Below are positions 2,386-20,325 of a stretch of 64,000 bases of DNA, piece after piece. A program made the position numbers and the translations under genes. The stretch covers positions 1,870,801-1,934,800 of the forward strand of contig MU004184.1 of assembly GCA_010093605.1 (NCBI GenBank), written 5' to 3'. Within the stretch, counting starts at the first letter, position 1, and each line of letters opens with the position of its first letter. This DNA is from Lophium mytilinum (Eukaryota). The notes beneath the pieces are model-generated. The model made no database searches. It saw only the letters and a list, made by a program, of their open reading frames with translations, and had not been told where the DNA came from.

Positions 2386-3959
2386 GGATACGTGTGCGAA
2401 GAAAAGGCGTGTGGGGGGATTAGGTGTTTGGTGTTTGGTGCTGGGCAGATTTTAAAGAGCGAAGGGGGCGACTCTGGGCGCAATCGCGACGGGCATTTGT
2501 GGGCGTTGGTGTCTTCCATTTTCCTTGGGGAGGCTTGAACCTTGATACCCTGTCTACTTTCCTTATATCGAGATGGCCTGATGCTGTATGATTAATCGAG
2601 GAGGGAAGAAGAGATTCGGGCGGCTACGGTAGTGATAAAGCTTAAGTCGGCTGGTATAGCACGACGGCGTCAGACAGAGCGTTAATCGGGCCCCGTGGTG
2701 TTGCAGGTTGTCGTGAGATTTGTCTCGTGCTGAAACTGTGATGGACACGACATGGTTATGTGAGAATTTCTGACAGCCTCGGATGAAGTGCGCGTTTACA
2801 TACGCAGGCTTCGACAGCAGCAAGGGTTTTTATGTAGGGTCGGGATGTGACAGCTCCCGGGTTGTAACCGCTAATTAACCTTACCTTCTCTTGCAAAACC
2901 TGGGAAACACCTGTTCACAGCGATGGAGCGCACTCCGAGCATGAACCCGGCGTCCTGTACGAGGTCTGCAGCCTTAAGCTGGGAGCATCCTGGTGGGGTC
3001 AAGCTTTTTTGCTCACGGACGAGCGCCGAGACAGTGCGCTACGCGAAACACACGACGCTTAACGACAGCGCGCAGCCTGGCTTGTTCGGGCAGGCCTTCC
3101 TGCTAGCTGGCATTGTGCTCCTTGTGCGCGTTCAATGCGGCACGGCTTGGTCGGCTGGGTGCTTGTTTTGCAAAAGCTGCGGCATGGGTGTTTGTGCATT
3201 GGAGCGGAAGGCGGGCAGATACAGATCGACTGGCGCCAGCACACGTTGAGTTCGAGAGTGTGGAGAAGAATAGATCGTCTTGCCAGTCGGGTTGCTGGAT
3301 GCCGTGAGCGATGACGTTCAGGGTCTCACGTTGACAGGCCCCTCAGGCCCCTCAAGGCCGTCGGACCCCTTCTTGGGCCCTTTGGTTGGAGCTTCTAATG
3401 GGGCAGCGTGGGCTTGGCAGATGTCGTCGCAGTCTGAAACAACAACTTGTCTCGAAGCGTCGCCCCAGATGCCAATCCCCTCATGGGTGACGCTGGGGGG
3501 ACCGACTGCCCTCGCACGCTCCTCCGCTTCATTCCGCTCGACGAGGCCTAGCTACAACCTTTTCTTCCAAGCTGTCATCCTTCGTCTACACCGCCGCGGG
3601 TCAGGCTCGTTTTGATATTGACCTCCTGCTCTGCTGCAACTCTCCCGTGCCCAATCCTCTGACCGCATTCCCAGCCCAGGCGGCCGGACGATGCAATTTC
3701 ACACATACGGCTCGTTAACCTCGTTCCCTAATTGCCTGCTCTTTCCGTTTGTTGGCCCGAAACACTGTCTCTCTCTCACCGCGCGTGCCTTTACTTCGCC
3801 GAAACCACCCACCTGCAGGCCACGGTGGACATCCAGTTTTCACTCCTTCACCGTTGCTGGCCGGCCCCGCGGTGGCCTCGCACTCGACCTACCTAGGATT
3901 GGGTGAATGTCGAGGTTGAGTCGAGCTGCCTCAATCCCGCCCACCTCACCGCCCTCGAC

Positions 3960-14470: not shown

Positions 14471-14995
14471 GGGCGCGCGTATGATGCATAGCTACTGGAG
14501 TTATTTGGGTTGTCCTTACGATTTGACGCTTCATGGTTCAGCGAAGGTGTTCATGTTGTAGGTCGGGTCCCCAGGAGTCCCTTCGATGGTTCCAAAATAC
14601 TGAAACTGTTATTCGATCTAAGAGACCAATGGCATTTCACAACTCATCCGTAGTTCTGTCGAATGAATATGTTACCGTATGCATTATAATCGCCTATAAC
14701 GAGAAGGGAACCGCTTGCACAAGATCAACCGTCCCACCTAGAACGCGGCCGGACCGACATAATCTCACAATGTCCAAACATGAATATGAACGTTGACTTC
14801 ATAGATAATCCGAAATGAAGCCTGCGCCAGCAGTACGTGCAAGTATAACGCAATAGTGTAGTACCTTCACTCAATAAAAGAAAGCCGTCCTTGCTAACAT
14901 TGCCTTGACCCAGTCAAATCTCGATAATACTGATCAAGGATTGGTCTGATTGTTGTTCATGGCATTGTATCCGTGTCATAAACGCACGCAGCGTA

Positions 14996-16517
14996 TTATG
15001 CACCCCTCACAGCTGCATTCAATCTTGACTCGTTTCTTGCTTGCTGAGGATGATCATGATAACGACAAACGTCGTAGTCGTGTGGTTCTTCAGGTAGGAT
15101 CTGCCCGGGGGATCGATGTATCAAACTCAGTGCTCGAGATCTCCTGACCATTATTTCCAACACGAGCGCTTTAGGTAGCAACTCCTCAATCGTCTCAGAT
15201 GGGTTCCCTATCTTTCGGTGTTGTCCATTCCAGTCACACGCCCACGACTCGAAAAAGTACGGGTATAGCCCAGAAGTGTTGGGGAGATTATCGAATGCCT
15301 TGACGACAGCGTGGATGTCAGGTACAAAGTGGATGCTACTCTTGACATGGATTGCGTCCATGATATCATATCGAAGCTGCGGAAAATCGTACTTATCGGC
15401 GAAAATGTACAGATCCACGAGCACGGAGTAGCTATCGAGTTGATAAGGGCCCTATCCTGGGCTCACCGTTGAGGAACTCAGCGTGCAAGTACCTAGACGG
15501 GGTCAGTTTCAAGGAGGTAATCTACAACCAGGCATTTTATACTTACGGTATCCTTTGCCAAGCTCGCAGCAATCTTTTGGCCTGCTTTTGGATGATTCTC
15601 GTATGAACCGGAAACTCACTATGAGAGAAATCTCTAAGTCTTTTCAGGTCTTTCAAGATTCTACTGTTATGGAGGATGGTGTATGGTATATCCATAAATA
15701 TTGCCTCTAGGGAATCCAACGCCAAATTCAGCGCGTCAAACGTCCTCAAAAGCTTGTCTGCAGTCTCTGCTGGACTCAATGTGCGAACCAGGACAGCAAC
15801 GTGTTCAACTATGGAAAAAGATTAGATCAGTCAGGCCTTCGATGAGCGGAATGGAACTGGGCTCACTACTGTGAAAAGCAGTATTCCGCACTGCATTGTC
15901 TTTGGGACTCTTGAAACACAAGAATGGTCTCTTTCTATCAGTCTTCCCCGATGTCCGAATCGGGTCTTGTTGCGGGACAATGCCTGTGACCTCGCTAGCT
16001 GAGGGCATGTCCGTGACATCGTCGCTTCCCCCAAGTGAAGCCGGCGCCGTAACCTCGTCACGTTCCCTGGCTGAGGCTGTAACCTCGTCGTGCTTCTTCT
16101 CTGCGAAGTGAAGCTCCATACCCTTCAACCTCTCGACGAACGCTTCTTCTCGGTTTTCCAGTGCCAGCTTTTGCGTATCAAGCCATTCCATAACGATCTT
16201 GAACAGCAAAGGTTCTACATCGTCAAGTGTGATTACCTCTTCCTCTGTTTCCCTGAAGCCTCCCTTGAATGCATTGTGGAAGTATCTTGACCAATGAGTG
16301 ATCAAGTTTTTGTGGATATGGAAAGGCTCAGCGTCCGGGCCGGCATTGACTGTTACTATTTCTGTGCCAAACGTTTTGCTTTCGGGAATCAGAGAGCTAT
16401 CAACACTAGACTCTACTAGGGGCCTCACTTCATTGAATCGCGCATGCGGTTTTGTGGCGTATGAGCACACGAGGCATCCCTTTTTGCGACCCCCGGGAGC
16501 CTGGACGCGGAGGCCAT
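14996..16517 (-). CDS. BTB/POZ protein, paralogue 1 (split BTB with inserted helical domain); introns 16379-16428, 15809-15866, 15546-(15493 or 15432)
   Basis: FGTEIVTV..FHIHKNLITHWSRYFHNAFKGGFRE..ITLDDVEPLLFKIVMEWLDTQ; C-terminal part LVDLYIFADKYDFPQLR..CRYHDH. Confidence 0.8.
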
Positions 16518-17065
16518 ACCGCAATTGAAATTAACAGTTGAATCTACTGAGTATGTAGTTGGAACAGTGCGGGGAGTCCAGCACACCCCTGGCGCCAAGG
16601 AGTCTAGGATAGGTCTAGCTTCTTCACGCGGTCACGAGGTCTACAACACGCTCTCGTATGTCTTGATATCACATTTAGTTTACCCCCCCCCCCAGGCTCA
16701 GACTGGACACCACCATGCGTAGGACAGGGTTTTTGTACACACGGGGCGGGGGACTGTACTTGCATCATTACAGAAGCTCATCGCAGCAGACCTATGTTCC
16801 TATTTCGTCCTGTACTCCTCCAAGTCCGCGAACACCTTTGACCAAGAATGGTAGTCTAGACTTAAAACGAAACTAGAAAATTTGCCAAGCTGCGGGAGAC
16901 CGGCGATGACTGGATACAACGATTTGAAAGCACCATTCTGCTGCTAGCAGTACGGTTCTTGGTGGCAGACTTGTTCAGACTGCAAATCCCTTACAAGTGT
17001 GTGCCCTGGGTCTAAACATTTCAGTTTGTCCTCGATTGCGGAGCATACAAAACACGTATGGCCTT

Positions 17066-18426
17066 TCATGAGCTCACTACCGTGGCCGTCGGGTTCGGTT
17101 CATCATTCGGGGGGTGCTCATGATAAGAGCAGAGACTGGTTTCGTACGGCATTGGGCTCAGCACTGTCCCAGGTAAGAGAAACAACTCCTTAGATCTCCG
17201 GGTCGCGATACTCGATAGTAGATCGTTGGGGAGTAGGTGGCCGATTTTAACACCTGATCCCCCTAATATAGCTTGCCCGTTCCAGTCGCCTACGTAAACA
17301 TCGAAGAAGTATCTGGAGAGCCCGGACGTCTTGGGCAGACTCTCGAACGCCTTTAGGACCGCGTAAAGGTAAGGAACGGAATCGGGGTAGTGGGAGTTCT
17401 TGAAGTGGACTTTATCGATTATGTCCCTGCGGAGCTGCGGCATGTCGTACTTGTCGGCAAAAATGTACATATCCACGAGCGTGTTGTAGCTGAACTGTTG
17501 CGAGTCGGTGTCATCTCTGTCATCTCCATGGCGAGTGTTACTAGGATAGATCAGCTTAAACGAAGGCGGCATATTGTAGTTGTTACGCACACGACTCTGT
17601 ACCACCTCCTATAAATCTCCTTGGCACGTCCTCGAATGTAGGGGCCTATAGGTCCTGGCAACATGTCCGCACCAGCCGTCGCGATGTCAAAAATAGTTGG
17701 CATGGCTTTCAAGCCATGGATGATCGAGAACGGCACATGTTTCATTGTCGCCAATGACTCCATTTCTTGCTGCAGAAACTCTAAATTATAGGTCTGCCTG
17801 ACTTCCAGTTTGGCCAAGCTAATCATTTCTTCGCGAATTTTCGGAACTGTATAGGCTGAAATTAAACACATACGAAAGGGACAATGGGTTCTGTCTTACT
17901 GATGTCGCAAAACTCATTACGCTGTGCGATGTTATGCACACGTTTGAGGCAGACATACGCATACCGATTCGGGTCCACATCCTCCTCCAACGTTTGATCA
18001 AAGGGCGAGGTTTCCGCAAGCTTCAGGTCGGACAACTCTTCCGCAGCTTTGTCCAATACCAACGTCTGCGTGTAAAGCCAGCCCATCACGATCTTGAAGA
18101 GCCAAGGCTGTACGTCCTCGAGAGCAATGGACTTGGTCTCTGCCTCAACGAAGGAGCCATCAAATGCGCCACGGAAGTAAGGCGACCAGTGAGTAAGCAA
18201 GTTTTTGTGAACGTAGAAGGGTTCAGCCTGTGGCCCAATACGCAAGGTCACCATCTCTGTACCAAACATCCTGCTTTACGGGTTTCAGAGAGGGATGAAC
18301 TTCAAGTCGCGTGTTCAGAGATACTCACGGCAGTGAAGAGCGCACGCGGTCCCTCGTCACATCAGAGCAGCTCTTTACATTGTTTTTCACAACCTTGGAG
18401 GCTGATGCCTTCTTTGCCGTGACCAT
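17066..18426 (-). CDS. BTB/POZ protein, paralogue 2 (split BTB with inserted helical domain), multi-exon
   Basis: FGTEMVTLRIG..FYVHKNLLTHWSPYFRGAFDGSFVEAE..LEDVQPWLFKIVMGWLYTQ; LVDMYIFADKYDMPQLR..CSYHEH; last intron 17541-17590. Confidence 0.85.
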
Positions 18427-18993
18427 GGCGATTGCGGTTCGGTATGACCTAGGGTCAAAGATTGAAGAGTGGTTGTTTGGGAGGCTGAGGGGGCGGGACT
18501 TTACAGCCCCCTGCGTAGCTCCTTCTAGAGCTAGCGCTTTGGACCAGTCCTAGCCGCAACACGAAAGCTTCACGAGATCACGTTTCTATCAATGTTGCGT
18601 CTGGCAGCCTTCAGAACCTTCATTAATGGCGTTTTTACAACTTCAATAGCAACAGAATTCATGCTGATTCATAGAGCAACATCTTAATCGCAAGGTTTTA
18701 ACCCTAACTAACCCGAAGTCAAATATGTGCTCGACATTGATTTCATACCGCATGCCTAGATTATATGAGGGTGGTACAGCGGCTCGTTCCTTGTACGAGA
18801 AGAACGAGTATCTCCTCTCTAACCTGTCTTCCGGGGAAGTTGCTCACGTAAATTGTAAATATTATTTACCTCTGCTAGAGACATTCTCAGATAATCTATC
18901 AGACATAAGAAATCGCGCCTAGTTCATCCATTCCATAGACTCTTCCTATTAAGGGGCTCTCGAGCCCCTTTATTCGGCGGAATGACATGATTC

Positions 18994-20325
18994 TTACTTT
19001 GAATGGTGATCGTGATACGAACAAAGACTGATATGATCGGATTGCGGTTTCATGCGTTCGTGAGACTGGTGCAGTTTAGCAGACCTCCGCATCATAACTT
19101 CCACCAGCACCGACTTTGGGAAAAGCTGCTCCACCACAAGAAGAGCCGCTCCATGATCCCCGGAATGCCTCCCATCCCATTCGTCCACGTAAACATCAAC
19201 AAAGTATCTATAAAGACCAGAGGTTGGAGGCAACTTGTGAAAGGCTTTGCTGACAGCACGGAGGTCCGGGACGAAATGCACGCAGCCCCTATTCACAGCG
19301 TGAATGAACTCAATGACATCAATTCGCAGCTGCTTAATATCGTATTTGTTGGCGAAAATATATAAGTCTACGAGGTCGGAGTACCTCGCAGCCGTGTCTT
19401 CGCGAGCTTGCCTATGACGGATCAGTCTACATCCATTAATTGCATTAACATTTTACTTACAGCCCGATTACTTTCCACTCGTCCAACATGAGTCTTGCAG
19501 ATTCCTTACATGCTTCGCCAAGAGGGCCCGGCAGCATCTTCTCTGGGGCATCTATGATATCTTCGAGCACCTGGAAAAGACCGATGGAAGAACGAAGAAC
19601 ATGAAGGTTTTGCGTCATGACTTTGATTCGATCCACGAATTGTGACAAGAGCGTTAGTTGCTTTGCACGGCCTTCACCCTCAGCCTTATACGTATTCCTT
19701 AGGACTCGCAAAATTCTTCTCAGTCTGTCGACTGCAGAACATCAAGTCAGTAACGACCTAAAGCGTGAAGAACATCGGTTCTCACTGTATTCAACAGCCG
19801 ATGATTTTGTCTCGGGTTCGATATCTTCACCCCGCTTGAAGAACAATGTCGAGAGCTCTTTCGCAGCCAGCTTCTCGACTAGCGTTTGGTCCGAATCTCC
19901 ACATCCGGTATTCTCTGGCTCCGGCAGCCTCACAGTGGGTTTGTCTAGCACTATGTTTTGGGAATACATCCAAGCTACAAAGCTTTTAAAAACCGAAGGT
20001 CTTACGTCCTCAAGGTTTATCTCCTTTTCCCCTGCCTCCTTGAAAGAGCCATTGCACGCGTTGCGAAAGTAGGGGGACCAGTAAGATATAAGGCCGCGAT
20101 GAACACAAAATGATTCCAGCCTTGAGCTCGTATGTATGGTAACTATGTCCGTGCCGCATATCCTACTTGACGGATGTTAGCAGAAGTCGGGTAGTGTGGA
20201 TGACTTCGCATATGCAAGTATACTCACCGTACAGAAGACGCGACCCGCTCCTGTGGGGCGCGACAGCAGCGCGGGGAAGATGTTTTCGAGACCCTGAAGG
20301 AGGACGAAGGTGTTTTGCGTGTCAT
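18994..20325 (-). CDS. BTB/POZ protein, paralogue 3 (split BTB with inserted helical domain); introns ~20163-20227, 19732-19785, 19412-19460
   Basis: CGTDIVTI..FCVHRGLISYWSPYFRNACNGSFKEAGEKEINLEDVRPSVFKSFVAWMYSQ (mostly missed by the ORF track); LVDLYIFANKYDIKQLR..CSYHDH; exons splice in frame. Confidence 0.85.

Follow-up and report, generated by a model that had tools for sequence, protein, structure and literature searches.

Organization of the gene array

The window analysed is a stretch of 64,000 nucleotides of Lophium mytilinum DNA (contig MU004184.1), and on its minus strand, between positions 14996 and 20325, lie three tandem paralogous BTB genes whose spliced ORFs are identical to NCBI proteins named for this species (P0001, P0004 and P0003 for genes 1, 2 and 3, respectively; Table 1). 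The proteins share one layout, in which the N-terminal half of a BTB domain (N-half) is followed by an insert of 150–180 residues and then by a conserved helix region, LVDLYIFADKYD. A preliminary description had proposed three paralogues with an N-half, an insert and conserved helices; the database proteins and the RNA contigs agree with it, and every peptide string that it quoted is present in the sequence. The splicing, which it had left to be checked against RNA, was confirmed: all nine introns, three per gene and with GT..AG ends, are joined in the contigs of run X1, and the exon that encodes most of the structure discussed below (exon B) is present in transcripts of all three genes.

Table 1. 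Features of the BTB gene array (window coordinates)
Feature	Position	Strand	Remarks
Gene 1	14996..16517	-	P0001, 432 aa; NCBI name hypothetical/BTB protein, Lophium mytilinum
Gene 1 annotated exons	16429-16517, 15867-16378, 15547-15808, 14999-15431	-	spliced ORF identical to P0001
Gene 1 BTB N-half	16156..16332	-	Pfam BTB 30.9 bits, profile positions 20-79 of 110
Gene 1 predicted five-helix bundle	15555..15906	-	P0001 residues 188-285, split by intron 15809-15866
Gene 1 exon B	15547..15808	-	262 nt, phase 1 to phase 2; encodes most of five-helix bundle
Gene 1 splice/frame problem	15432..15546	-	RNA contig after 54-nt intron reads into TAG 15432-15434
Gene 1 post-insert conserved helix region (YSVLVDLYIFADKYDFPQLRYDIMDA)	15353..15430	-	putative BTB A4-A5
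Gene 2	17066..18426	-	P0004, 400 aa; exons 18329-18426, 17900-18273, 17591-17846, 17069-17540
Gene 2 BTB N-half	18042..18251	-	Pfam BTB 40.5 bits; F-V-E aligned with SPOP M-E-E
Gene 2 exon B	17591..17846	-	256 nt, phase 1 to phase 2; no Med26 match
Gene 3	18994..20325	-	P0003, 388 aa; exons 20228-20325, 19786-20165, 19461-19731, 18997-19411
Gene 3 BTB N-half	19940..20116	-	Pfam BTB 41.1 bits
Gene 3 exon B	19461..19731	-	271 nt, phase 1 to phase 2; no Med26 match

The last intron of gene 1 appears in the RNA contig in a 54-nt form (15493–15546 removed), and the ORF of this contig ends at a TAG upstream of the C-terminal half (C-half). An open frame requires the 115-nt intron of the annotated model (15432–15546), which has canonical GT..AG ends; in P0002, an orthologue from another genus, the stretch matching 15432–15546 is in frame. 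Such a disruption relative to the orthologue, with a stop ahead of the C-half, would be expected if the array were decaying and partly non-functional, a set of pseudogenising duplicates, but the ORFs of genes 2 and 3 are intact and supported by RNA, the C-half of gene 1 is still open and 78% identical (90/116) to that of the orthologue, and the 115-nt intron would restore the frame, rare isoforms being dropped by contigs. We regard decay as very improbable.

A BTB region interrupted by an insert

The Pfam BTB/POZ profile (PF00651; gathering cut-off 20.5 bits) matches all three array genes above its gathering score, as it does P0002 (42.8 bits), and profile searches of the PDB with the N-half return the BTB domains of KBTBD4, SPOP and KEAP1 with E-values of 2.5e-7 and weaker. 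In the array genes the Pfam matches stop at profile position 79–83 of 110 (79–85 with P0002 included), and those of unsplit relatives likewise end early. The helix that would contact Cul3 carries a phi-x-E motif in all four proteins (F-R-E, F-V-E, F-K-E and F-R-E, i.e. F-[RVK]-E), and phi-x-E is given a Cul3-contact role in BTB domains in PMC3616122. From the conservation of this motif we infer a Cul3-adaptor role for the family.

Beyond the insert, 12 columns of the helix region are invariant in the four proteins, and the C-terminal region, which belongs to no Pfam family, carries an invariant C-x-Y-H-x-H. These post-insert helices would correspond, as judged from the sequence, to BTB helices A4-A5. 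The proposal that the BTB fold is split in two holds insofar as the two halves adjoin in relatives (see below), but the A4-A5 assignment is a putative one, as the exon that encodes these helices (exon C) gave no BTB match in Pfam or PDB sequence searches. A single-sequence AF2 run of the full-length protein gave a pLDDT of 40.

At all five loci of metagenomic relatives (six gene copies), no more than about 200 nt separates the tblastn match of the N-half from that of the C-half, so the insert is specific to the present lineage. Two of these loci contain uninterrupted ORFs, with a linker of 25 residues between the halves in one (L001, 2474–3148) and a low-complexity linker of ~65 residues in the other (L004, 2–520). 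An exhaustive hmmsearch of 1,835,955,588 proteins returned four matches at E<=0.001, namely the three array proteins and one spurious repeat protein. The lineage-specific family that had been postulated is thus upheld, and judging by the sequences seen so far it is confined to Mytilinidiales, in two genera of wood-inhabiting fungi.

Exon B and the predicted fold of the insert

In all three genes exon B is preceded by a phase-1 intron and followed by a phase-2 intron, and the latter lies 4–6 codons past an invariant Trp, in accordance with the preliminary description, which had the exon ending shortly after this residue. Its coordinates for exon B were exact in genes 1 (15547–15808) and 3 (19461–19731), and those for gene 2 (about 17591–17819) are corrected here to 17591–17846 from the RNA contigs and the spliced ORF. 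Since the length of each exon B is 1 mod 3, skipping would shift the frame, and exon B is therefore a constitutive part of the protein. A shuffled exon would be expected to be symmetric, flanked by introns of equal phase, and to contain the entire domain. The asymmetry of exon B disfavours simple exon shuffling, and as the predicted bundle begins ~13 residues ahead of it, so that the preceding exon already encodes the start of helix 1, the boundaries of exon and domain differ. Both features contradict the idea of an exon-shuffled module.

Modelling of the insert with AF2, from an alignment of only four sequences, gave a five-helix bundle (pLDDT 80.7, pTM 0.72) with helices at model residues 10–32, 39–62, 64–68, 72–81 and 92–107. 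The insert is thus predicted to contain a compact bundle of ~100 residues whose topology is that of either a HEAT-repeat pair or a TFIIS N-terminal domain (TND). It superposes on the TND of LEDGF (6zv0, Z 9.8 over 88/92 residues; 3hpg_J, Z 9.2 over 77/77 residues, r.m.s.d. 2.1) and on the LW domain of T. brucei (7xgw, Z 8.4 over 87/97 residues). HEAT/ARM fragments superpose equally well or better, with Z up to 11.2, and Z>=8 is reached by 76 of 48,161 PDB representatives, of which the best 50 are mostly HEAT/ARM repeats; the values for the TNDs lie below the level that the tool itself regards as discriminating for helical bundles. Foldseek returned no match at E<=0.001, its best TM being 0.66 for importin-beta. 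Among the ESM Atlas neighbours of P0001 186–288 the LEDGF/HRP2 cluster comes first (TM 0.74) and a Med26 cluster is also found, but the Atlas search with gene 3 gave no TND neighbour. The structural match to a TND that had been foreseen as a check is seen in the helical bundle and its superposition on TNDs, but not in the Foldseek search or in the gene 3 Atlas search.

Identity between the paralogues is 41–67% in the N-half, 44–52% in the C-half, 13–21% in exon B and 13–23% in the linker, so that exon B, level with the linker, is the fastest-evolving part of the protein; an identity as low as that of the linker could equally be expected of a spacer under weak constraint. The bundle might be a lineage-specific helical elaboration of the variable A3-A4 linker, a spacer or regulatory element with no specific ligand, whose likeness to a TND reflects two generic helical hairpins. 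The linkers that relatives have in this place, which are short or of low complexity, the rate at which the insert evolves, the preponderance of HEAT/ARM repeats among its structural neighbours and the failure of the exhaustive profile search to find a donor-like sequence are all consistent with this, and a precedent is offered by RhoBTB, whose first BTB domain is bipartite and contains an insertion (PMC4931677). Against it, the confidently predicted fold is kept across paralogues that are only 13–21% identical, with invariant core positions that include the Trp; the bundle is retained in P0002, the 53–56% identical orthologue; and the sub-threshold Med26 signals described below belong to the family that had been specified beforehand. 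On balance we think such an elaboration unlikely, though it deserves serious consideration.

Relationship of the bundle to the TND

In the preliminary description the insert was inferred to be a genuine TND, acquired by exon shuffling, which would capture Pol II elongation factors through their acidic TND-interacting motifs (TIMs) so that Cul3 can have them ubiquitylated. The best Pfam match of gene 1 exon B is indeed Med26 (E 0.0019, profile positions 9–50 of 52, reaching as far as the conserved Trp), but its score of 18.4 bits is below the gathering threshold of 20.6, and at E<=10 it is seen in one of the three exons, one of two full-length proteins and one of four insert parts, being absent from the orthologue P0002. 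When phmmer was run against the PDB, the third-best of 177,635 chains was the MED26 TND (6zv3), aligned end to end, though with an E of 1.2. Profile searches of the PDB with the insert retrieved no TND, and neither a TND relative nor a donor-like sequence was found in the exhaustive profile search of 1.84 billion proteins.

The TND has two hydrophobic pockets flanking a patch of 3–5 basic residues. In the last 50 residues of the bundle (alpha3-alpha5) the net charge is +7, +3, +4 and -3 in the four proteins; the region is basic in three of them and acidic in gene 3 (-3), i.e. the positive charge is not conserved. The TND is defined as a five-helix bundle that resembles a HEAT-repeat pair (PMC9987994), and the AF2 model has these five helices, but the feature is non-specific, as HEAT/ARM fragments score the same or higher. 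The TND assignment is partly supported: for it are the five-helix model, the superposition on the LEDGF TND and the LW domain and the Atlas neighbours of P0001, and against it are the sub-threshold score of the Med26 match, seen in one of four members, the missing profile relatives and the HEAT/ARM scores. The bundle may descend from a true TND. Acquisition of a genuine TND by exon shuffling, which has the exon phases and the divergence of exon B against it as well, appears to us quite unlikely. A related reading, in which Mytilinidiales-specific Cul3 adaptors carry a highly diverged TND inside the BTB fold, have TIM-bearing elongation factors ubiquitylated and may use the acidic linker as an intramolecular pseudo-ligand, is likewise quite unlikely.

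Proposed role of the family

The explanation that we favour, with a probability of about 0.55, is a small, tandemly duplicated BTB family of the Cul3-adaptor type, in which the loop following helix A3 has been expanded by a linker and a helical bundle that serves as a partner or substrate module. The loop between A3 and the next helices would have grown from 25–65 residues, as in the relatives, to 150–180 residues, the additional sequence forming a linker, acidic and probably disordered, and a compact five-helix bundle of ~100 residues. Both BTB parts would fold together, and the BTB domain would dimerise and, to judge from the motif, dock on Cul3 via its phi-x-E surface. Binding of a partner or substrate would then fall to the bundle, perhaps with a contribution from the conserved C-terminal region, and the surface of the bundle would diversify fast among the paralogues.

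A folded module evolving independently within the A3-A4 loop would mean that domain insertion is tolerated there, and would provide a naturally occurring model for the way in which Cul3 adaptors might acquire new recognition modules. If the bundle were a true TND, a reader of disordered acidic motifs would sit directly on a ubiquitin ligase and the TND-TIM interaction code of Pol II elongation would gain a direct link to ubiquitylation; it would also be the first TND found in a protein that does not belong to the transcription machinery proper, and the first folded domain known to lie within a BTB domain. The TND identity being putative, the family is for the present of value as a test case and as a curiosity of structure and evolution.

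Comparison with known systems

The bundle shares with TNDs (PF08711 Med26, PS51319, PF11467 LEDGF IBD and the LW domain) a size of ~80–100 residues, two long helices, a short one and a terminal hairpin that closes with a conserved Trp. It differs from them in scoring below the Pfam threshold, in being matched in one of four members, in lacking a profile link and a conserved positive net charge in the alpha3-alpha5 region, in its fast evolution, and in its location, which is within a BTB domain and not in a transcription factor. Its best structural matches are HEAT/ARM repeat pairs (importin-beta, CTNNBL1 and CAND1 among others; Z up to 10.7–11.2), but unlike these it is a single isolated hairpin pair with a short helix and forms no solenoid.

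BTB domains are usually compact. Compared with the Cul3 adaptors SPOP, KLHL and KBTBD, the Lophium mytilinum proteins have no MATH or Kelch substrate domain, an A3-A4 loop longer by 150–180 residues and a C-terminal C-x-Y-H-x-H region outside any Pfam family. In RhoBTB the first BTB domain, which binds Cul3, is bipartite, and an insertion of unknown function interrupts it (PMC4931677). The comparison with RhoBTB covers the interruption itself; the Lophium mytilinum proteins have neither a GTPase domain nor a second BTB domain, and a folded bundle of five helices is predicted for their insert.

Gene models and transcription of the array

Stop-to-stop ORF listing together with reading of the minus strand resolves three tandem genes of four exons each, and tblastn of the gene 1 product against the whole window finds these three copies only. 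The gene 1 model is identical to a 432-aa NCBI protein of Lophium mytilinum named as a hypothetical/BTB protein (P0001), found by word-based protein search, and an exhaustive search of protein representatives assigned gene 2 to P0004 (400 aa) and gene 3 to P0003 (388 aa). Word-based protein searches retained 1 of 182, 2 of 6,267 and 3 of 7,999 candidates, all of them self matches apart from one orthologue; the gene 1 orthologue of Mytilinidion resinicola (P0002, 448 aa) has 63% identity. Neither Kelch, MATH nor any other known substrate domain was found by Pfam searches in these four family members. The ORFs around the array match an M28 peptidase, MFS and sugar transporters, a methyltransferase and a GNAT acetyltransferase, with no functional link to the BTB genes evident. 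A plus-strand ORF antisense to gene 2 was judged to be a by-product of the coding strand.

The single public sequencing run listed (X1), whose kind is guessed in that it carries no RNA label and which was found to contain spliced contigs, holds 79% of the sampled words of the window. All nine introns are joined in its contigs, with CT..AC on the plus strand and hence GT..AG on the gene strand, and splicing the window at the RNA joints recovers P0003 and P0004 exactly. Exon B, the third exon of each gene and the one encoding most of the predicted helical bundle, is present in the contigs for all three genes; the start of gene 2 exon B, put at about 17819 in the preliminary description, is corrected by the contigs to 17846. 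One contig extends over both gene 1 and gene 2 and the space between them; possible causes are read-through, overlapping UTRs and a merge during assembly.

Exon B is preceded by a phase 1 intron and followed by a phase 2 intron, and its length is 1 mod 3 in each gene, so that its omission would shift the frame and the exon is constitutive. Insertion of an exon into an existing intron needs compatible phases, and exon B cannot enter an intron without a frame break, which argues against simple exon shuffling. Since the first helix of the bundle begins around 13 residues upstream of exon B, in the preceding exon, exon and domain do not coincide, and the exon-shuffled origin proposed earlier is contradicted on both grounds.

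P0001 is recovered by splicing the window only with a last intron of 115 nt, which this annotated form requires and which is absent from the X1 contig. After gene 1 exon B the contig splices out just 54 nt, and its ORF stops at a TAG to give 307 aa, ending before the C-half, the part that follows the insert. The Mytilinidion orthologue reads the equivalent of the 115-nt stretch in frame, and the frame of Lophium gene 1 is thus disrupted there. The C-half frame is still open, with 78% identity to the orthologue; either the reading frame is restored in a minor isoform or it was lost recently. Rare variants get lost from contigs, and the annotated form of gene 1 may exist.

Features of the BTB array in the window and of related metagenomic loci (L001, L002, L004)
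Feature	Sequence	Position	Strand	Remark
Genes 1 to 3	window	14996-20325	-	tandem
Gene 1 exon B	window	15547-15808	-	262 nt, X1 contigs
Gene 2 exon B	window	17591-17846	-	256 nt, X1 contigs
Gene 3 exon B	window	19461-19731	-	271 nt, X1 contigs
Gene 1, spliced out after exon B	window	15493-15546		X1 contig
Gene 1, annotated last intron	window	15432-15546	-	disrupted frame
Gene 1, TAG	window	15432-15434		X1 contig ORF
Gene 1, D-E-V-T-A direct repeat	window	16045-16089	-	acidic linker
Gene 1, C-x-Y-H-x-H	window	15050-15067	-	near C-terminus
Antisense ORF	window	17823-18422	+	199 aa
Contig spanning genes 1 and 2	window	14900-18273		X1, record 1, 4596 nt
BTB gene	L001	2474-3148		one open frame, linker 25 aa
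BTB gene	L004	2-520		linker ~65 aa, low-complexity
BTB copies	L001	819-1517, 2501-3130, 4093-4484
BTB copies	L002	815-1279, 2501-3130
BTB copies	L004	5-502, 1454-2128
C-x-Y-H-x-H	L001	about 3080-3130

The insert within the BTB region

The separation of the BTB core from the conserved helices that follow it was borne out, the two parts being 150-180 residues apart in the window genes and adjoining in relatives. Pfam BTB matches the N-half above cut-off in all three genes and ends at profile position 79-83 of 110; unsplit relatives, too, match no further than position 79. In the PDB, the profile of the four family sequences matched KBTBD4, SPOP, KLHL26, KEAP1 and other BTB domains through the N-half only, and the Cul3-contact motif phi-x-E aligns with that of SPOP. 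The part after the insert carries an invariant L-V-D-x-Y-I-F-A-x-K-Y-D-x-x-Q-L-R pattern; for this part (exon C) no BTB was returned by Pfam or PDB sequence searches, the PDB profile matches being at chance level. From their position and their likeness to the helices of other BTB proteins, we infer that these helices correspond to BTB A4-A5, and the two halves could then reassemble into one domain. A single-sequence AF2 model of P0001 was unusable (pLDDT 40.1).

A metagenome scan gave five confirmed loci among 224 pattern matches, and in all five (six gene copies; tblastn) the two halves are spaced by no more than about 200 nt; the ORFs were inspected in two of these loci, L001 and L004 (see table). 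With the halves near each other in relatives and 150-180 residues apart here, the insert represents an expansion specific to this lineage, at a position where the family is variable. Two or three neighbouring copies of the family occur in the metagenomic relatives as well (tblastn), so tandem arrays seem typical of the family.

Near the C-terminus a C-x-Y-H-x-H motif is invariant in all four family proteins and recurs in L001. This region is covered by no Pfam family, and the motif may be a metal-binding knuckle.

Predicted fold of the insert

The AF2 model of P0001 residues 179-288, for which the alignment consisted of the four family members only, has a mean pLDDT of 80.7 and a pTM of 0.72 and predicts five helices (model residues 10-32, 39-62, 64-68, 72-81 and 92-107). 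The preliminary description had taken the insert for a TFIIS N-terminal domain (TND). Foldseek against the PDB gave no match at E<=0.001, its best TM being 0.66 for importin-beta. The model superposes on TND chains when the 997 best Foldseek chains are re-scored. Among the 50 matches listed, these were the LEDGF TND 6zv0 (Z 9.8, 88 of 92 residues aligned), 5n88_D (numbered 347-425; Z 9.7, 79 of 79, r.m.s.d. 2.0), which is probably the same domain although its title is silent on this, the LEDGF IBD in 3hpg_J (Z 9.2, 77 of 77) and 2msr (Z 8.6, 86 of 88), and the T. brucei LW domain 7xgw (Z 8.4, 87 of 97); the top match was an IP3-receptor ARM fragment (Z 11.2), and by the guidance of the search tool a Z under about 13 may, for helical bundles, reflect just a common arrangement.

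Via a wide search independent of Foldseek, 76 of 48,161 representatives were found at Z>=8, led by HEAT/ARM fragments with Z up to 10.7. The LEDGF IBD 5yi9 (rank 44, Z 8.5, 89 aligned) is the only TND representative in the best 50 of the 76; those of TFIIS, IWS1, MED26, PNUTS and Elongin A are not in these 50, an absence that excludes nothing. In the ESM Atlas, the Atlas's own model of P0001 186-288 placed a LEDGF/HRP2 cluster first (TM 0.74), with a fungal PWWP cluster at 0.73 and a plant Med26 cluster at 0.68; similar scores went to clusters of GST_C and DUF5667 and to unnamed ones. P0003 122-250 had Nup85, vinculin and BAR-type neighbours there and no TND, though with its longer range it does not strictly repeat the P0001 search.

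Sequence signal and divergence

For gene 1 exon B the top Pfam match is Med26 (PF08711; E 0.0019, profile positions 9-50 of 52), at 18.4 bits against a cut-off of 20.6. The match drops to E 0.026 in full-length P0001, is absent from the orthologue P0002, and occurs in one of the four insert parts at E<=10; this sole signal falls in the same paralogue that has the frame problem. In phmmer of gene 1 exon B against 177,635 PDB sequences, the MED26 TND 6zv3 ranked third, end to end, at E 1.2. PDB searches with the exon B profile and the four-sequence insert profile gave chance-level matches and no TND. Among 1.84 billion representatives, the three-sequence exon B profile matched the three window proteins and, as its sole match beyond the family, P0005, an unrelated repeat protein from outside the window (552 aa, ~60-residue repeat units; E 7.7e-5 over five stretches), which was judged a composition/repeat artefact. 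At the level of sequence, then, the TND signal is steady in direction, never significant and confined to one family lineage.

Section 4 of PMC9987994 defines the ligand reading of the TND by a basic patch. Over its final 50 residues the bundle carries net charges of +7, +3, +4 and -3 in the four family members, and such a patch is therefore not family-wide. The bundle fold and the sub-threshold Med26 match speak for a true TND capturing elongation factors, the specific model of the preliminary description, but no profile match is significant and HEAT/ARM folds score equally well or higher, and we regard this as quite unlikely.

Between paralogues, identity is 41-67% in the N-half and 44-52% in the C-half, against 13-21% in exon B and 13-23% in the linker; between P0001 and its orthologue P0002 the respective values are 85, 78, 53 and 62%. 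The acidic linker of gene 1 encodes D-E-V-T-A twice as a short direct repeat, and a similar pattern is found in P0002. That this linker could bind the adjoining basic bundle intramolecularly is pure speculation.

Proposed role and relation to known BTB proteins

We favour, at slightly better than even odds (about 0.55), a Cul3-adaptor-type BTB protein in which the nested bundle is a fast-diversifying partner-binding module, perhaps with the conserved C-terminal region. The data show the gene structure, its transcription, the insertion specific to this lineage and a predicted helical bundle; beyond these, a reassembled BTB domain would bind Cul3, and the bundle would bind a ligand, perhaps together with that region. 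A literature search found no TND-like five-helix bundle nested in a BTB domain and no BTB-TND architecture, and we know of no description of a folded bundle of this kind at such a site. The insert might instead be a helical elaboration of the linker that has no ligand, an alternative we hold to be doubtful though worth keeping in mind. A bipartite BTB domain is already known from RhoBTB, whose first BTB domain is bipartite with an insertion of unknown function (PMC4931677), and if the bundle has no ligand this insertion would be comparable to the insert of the window genes.
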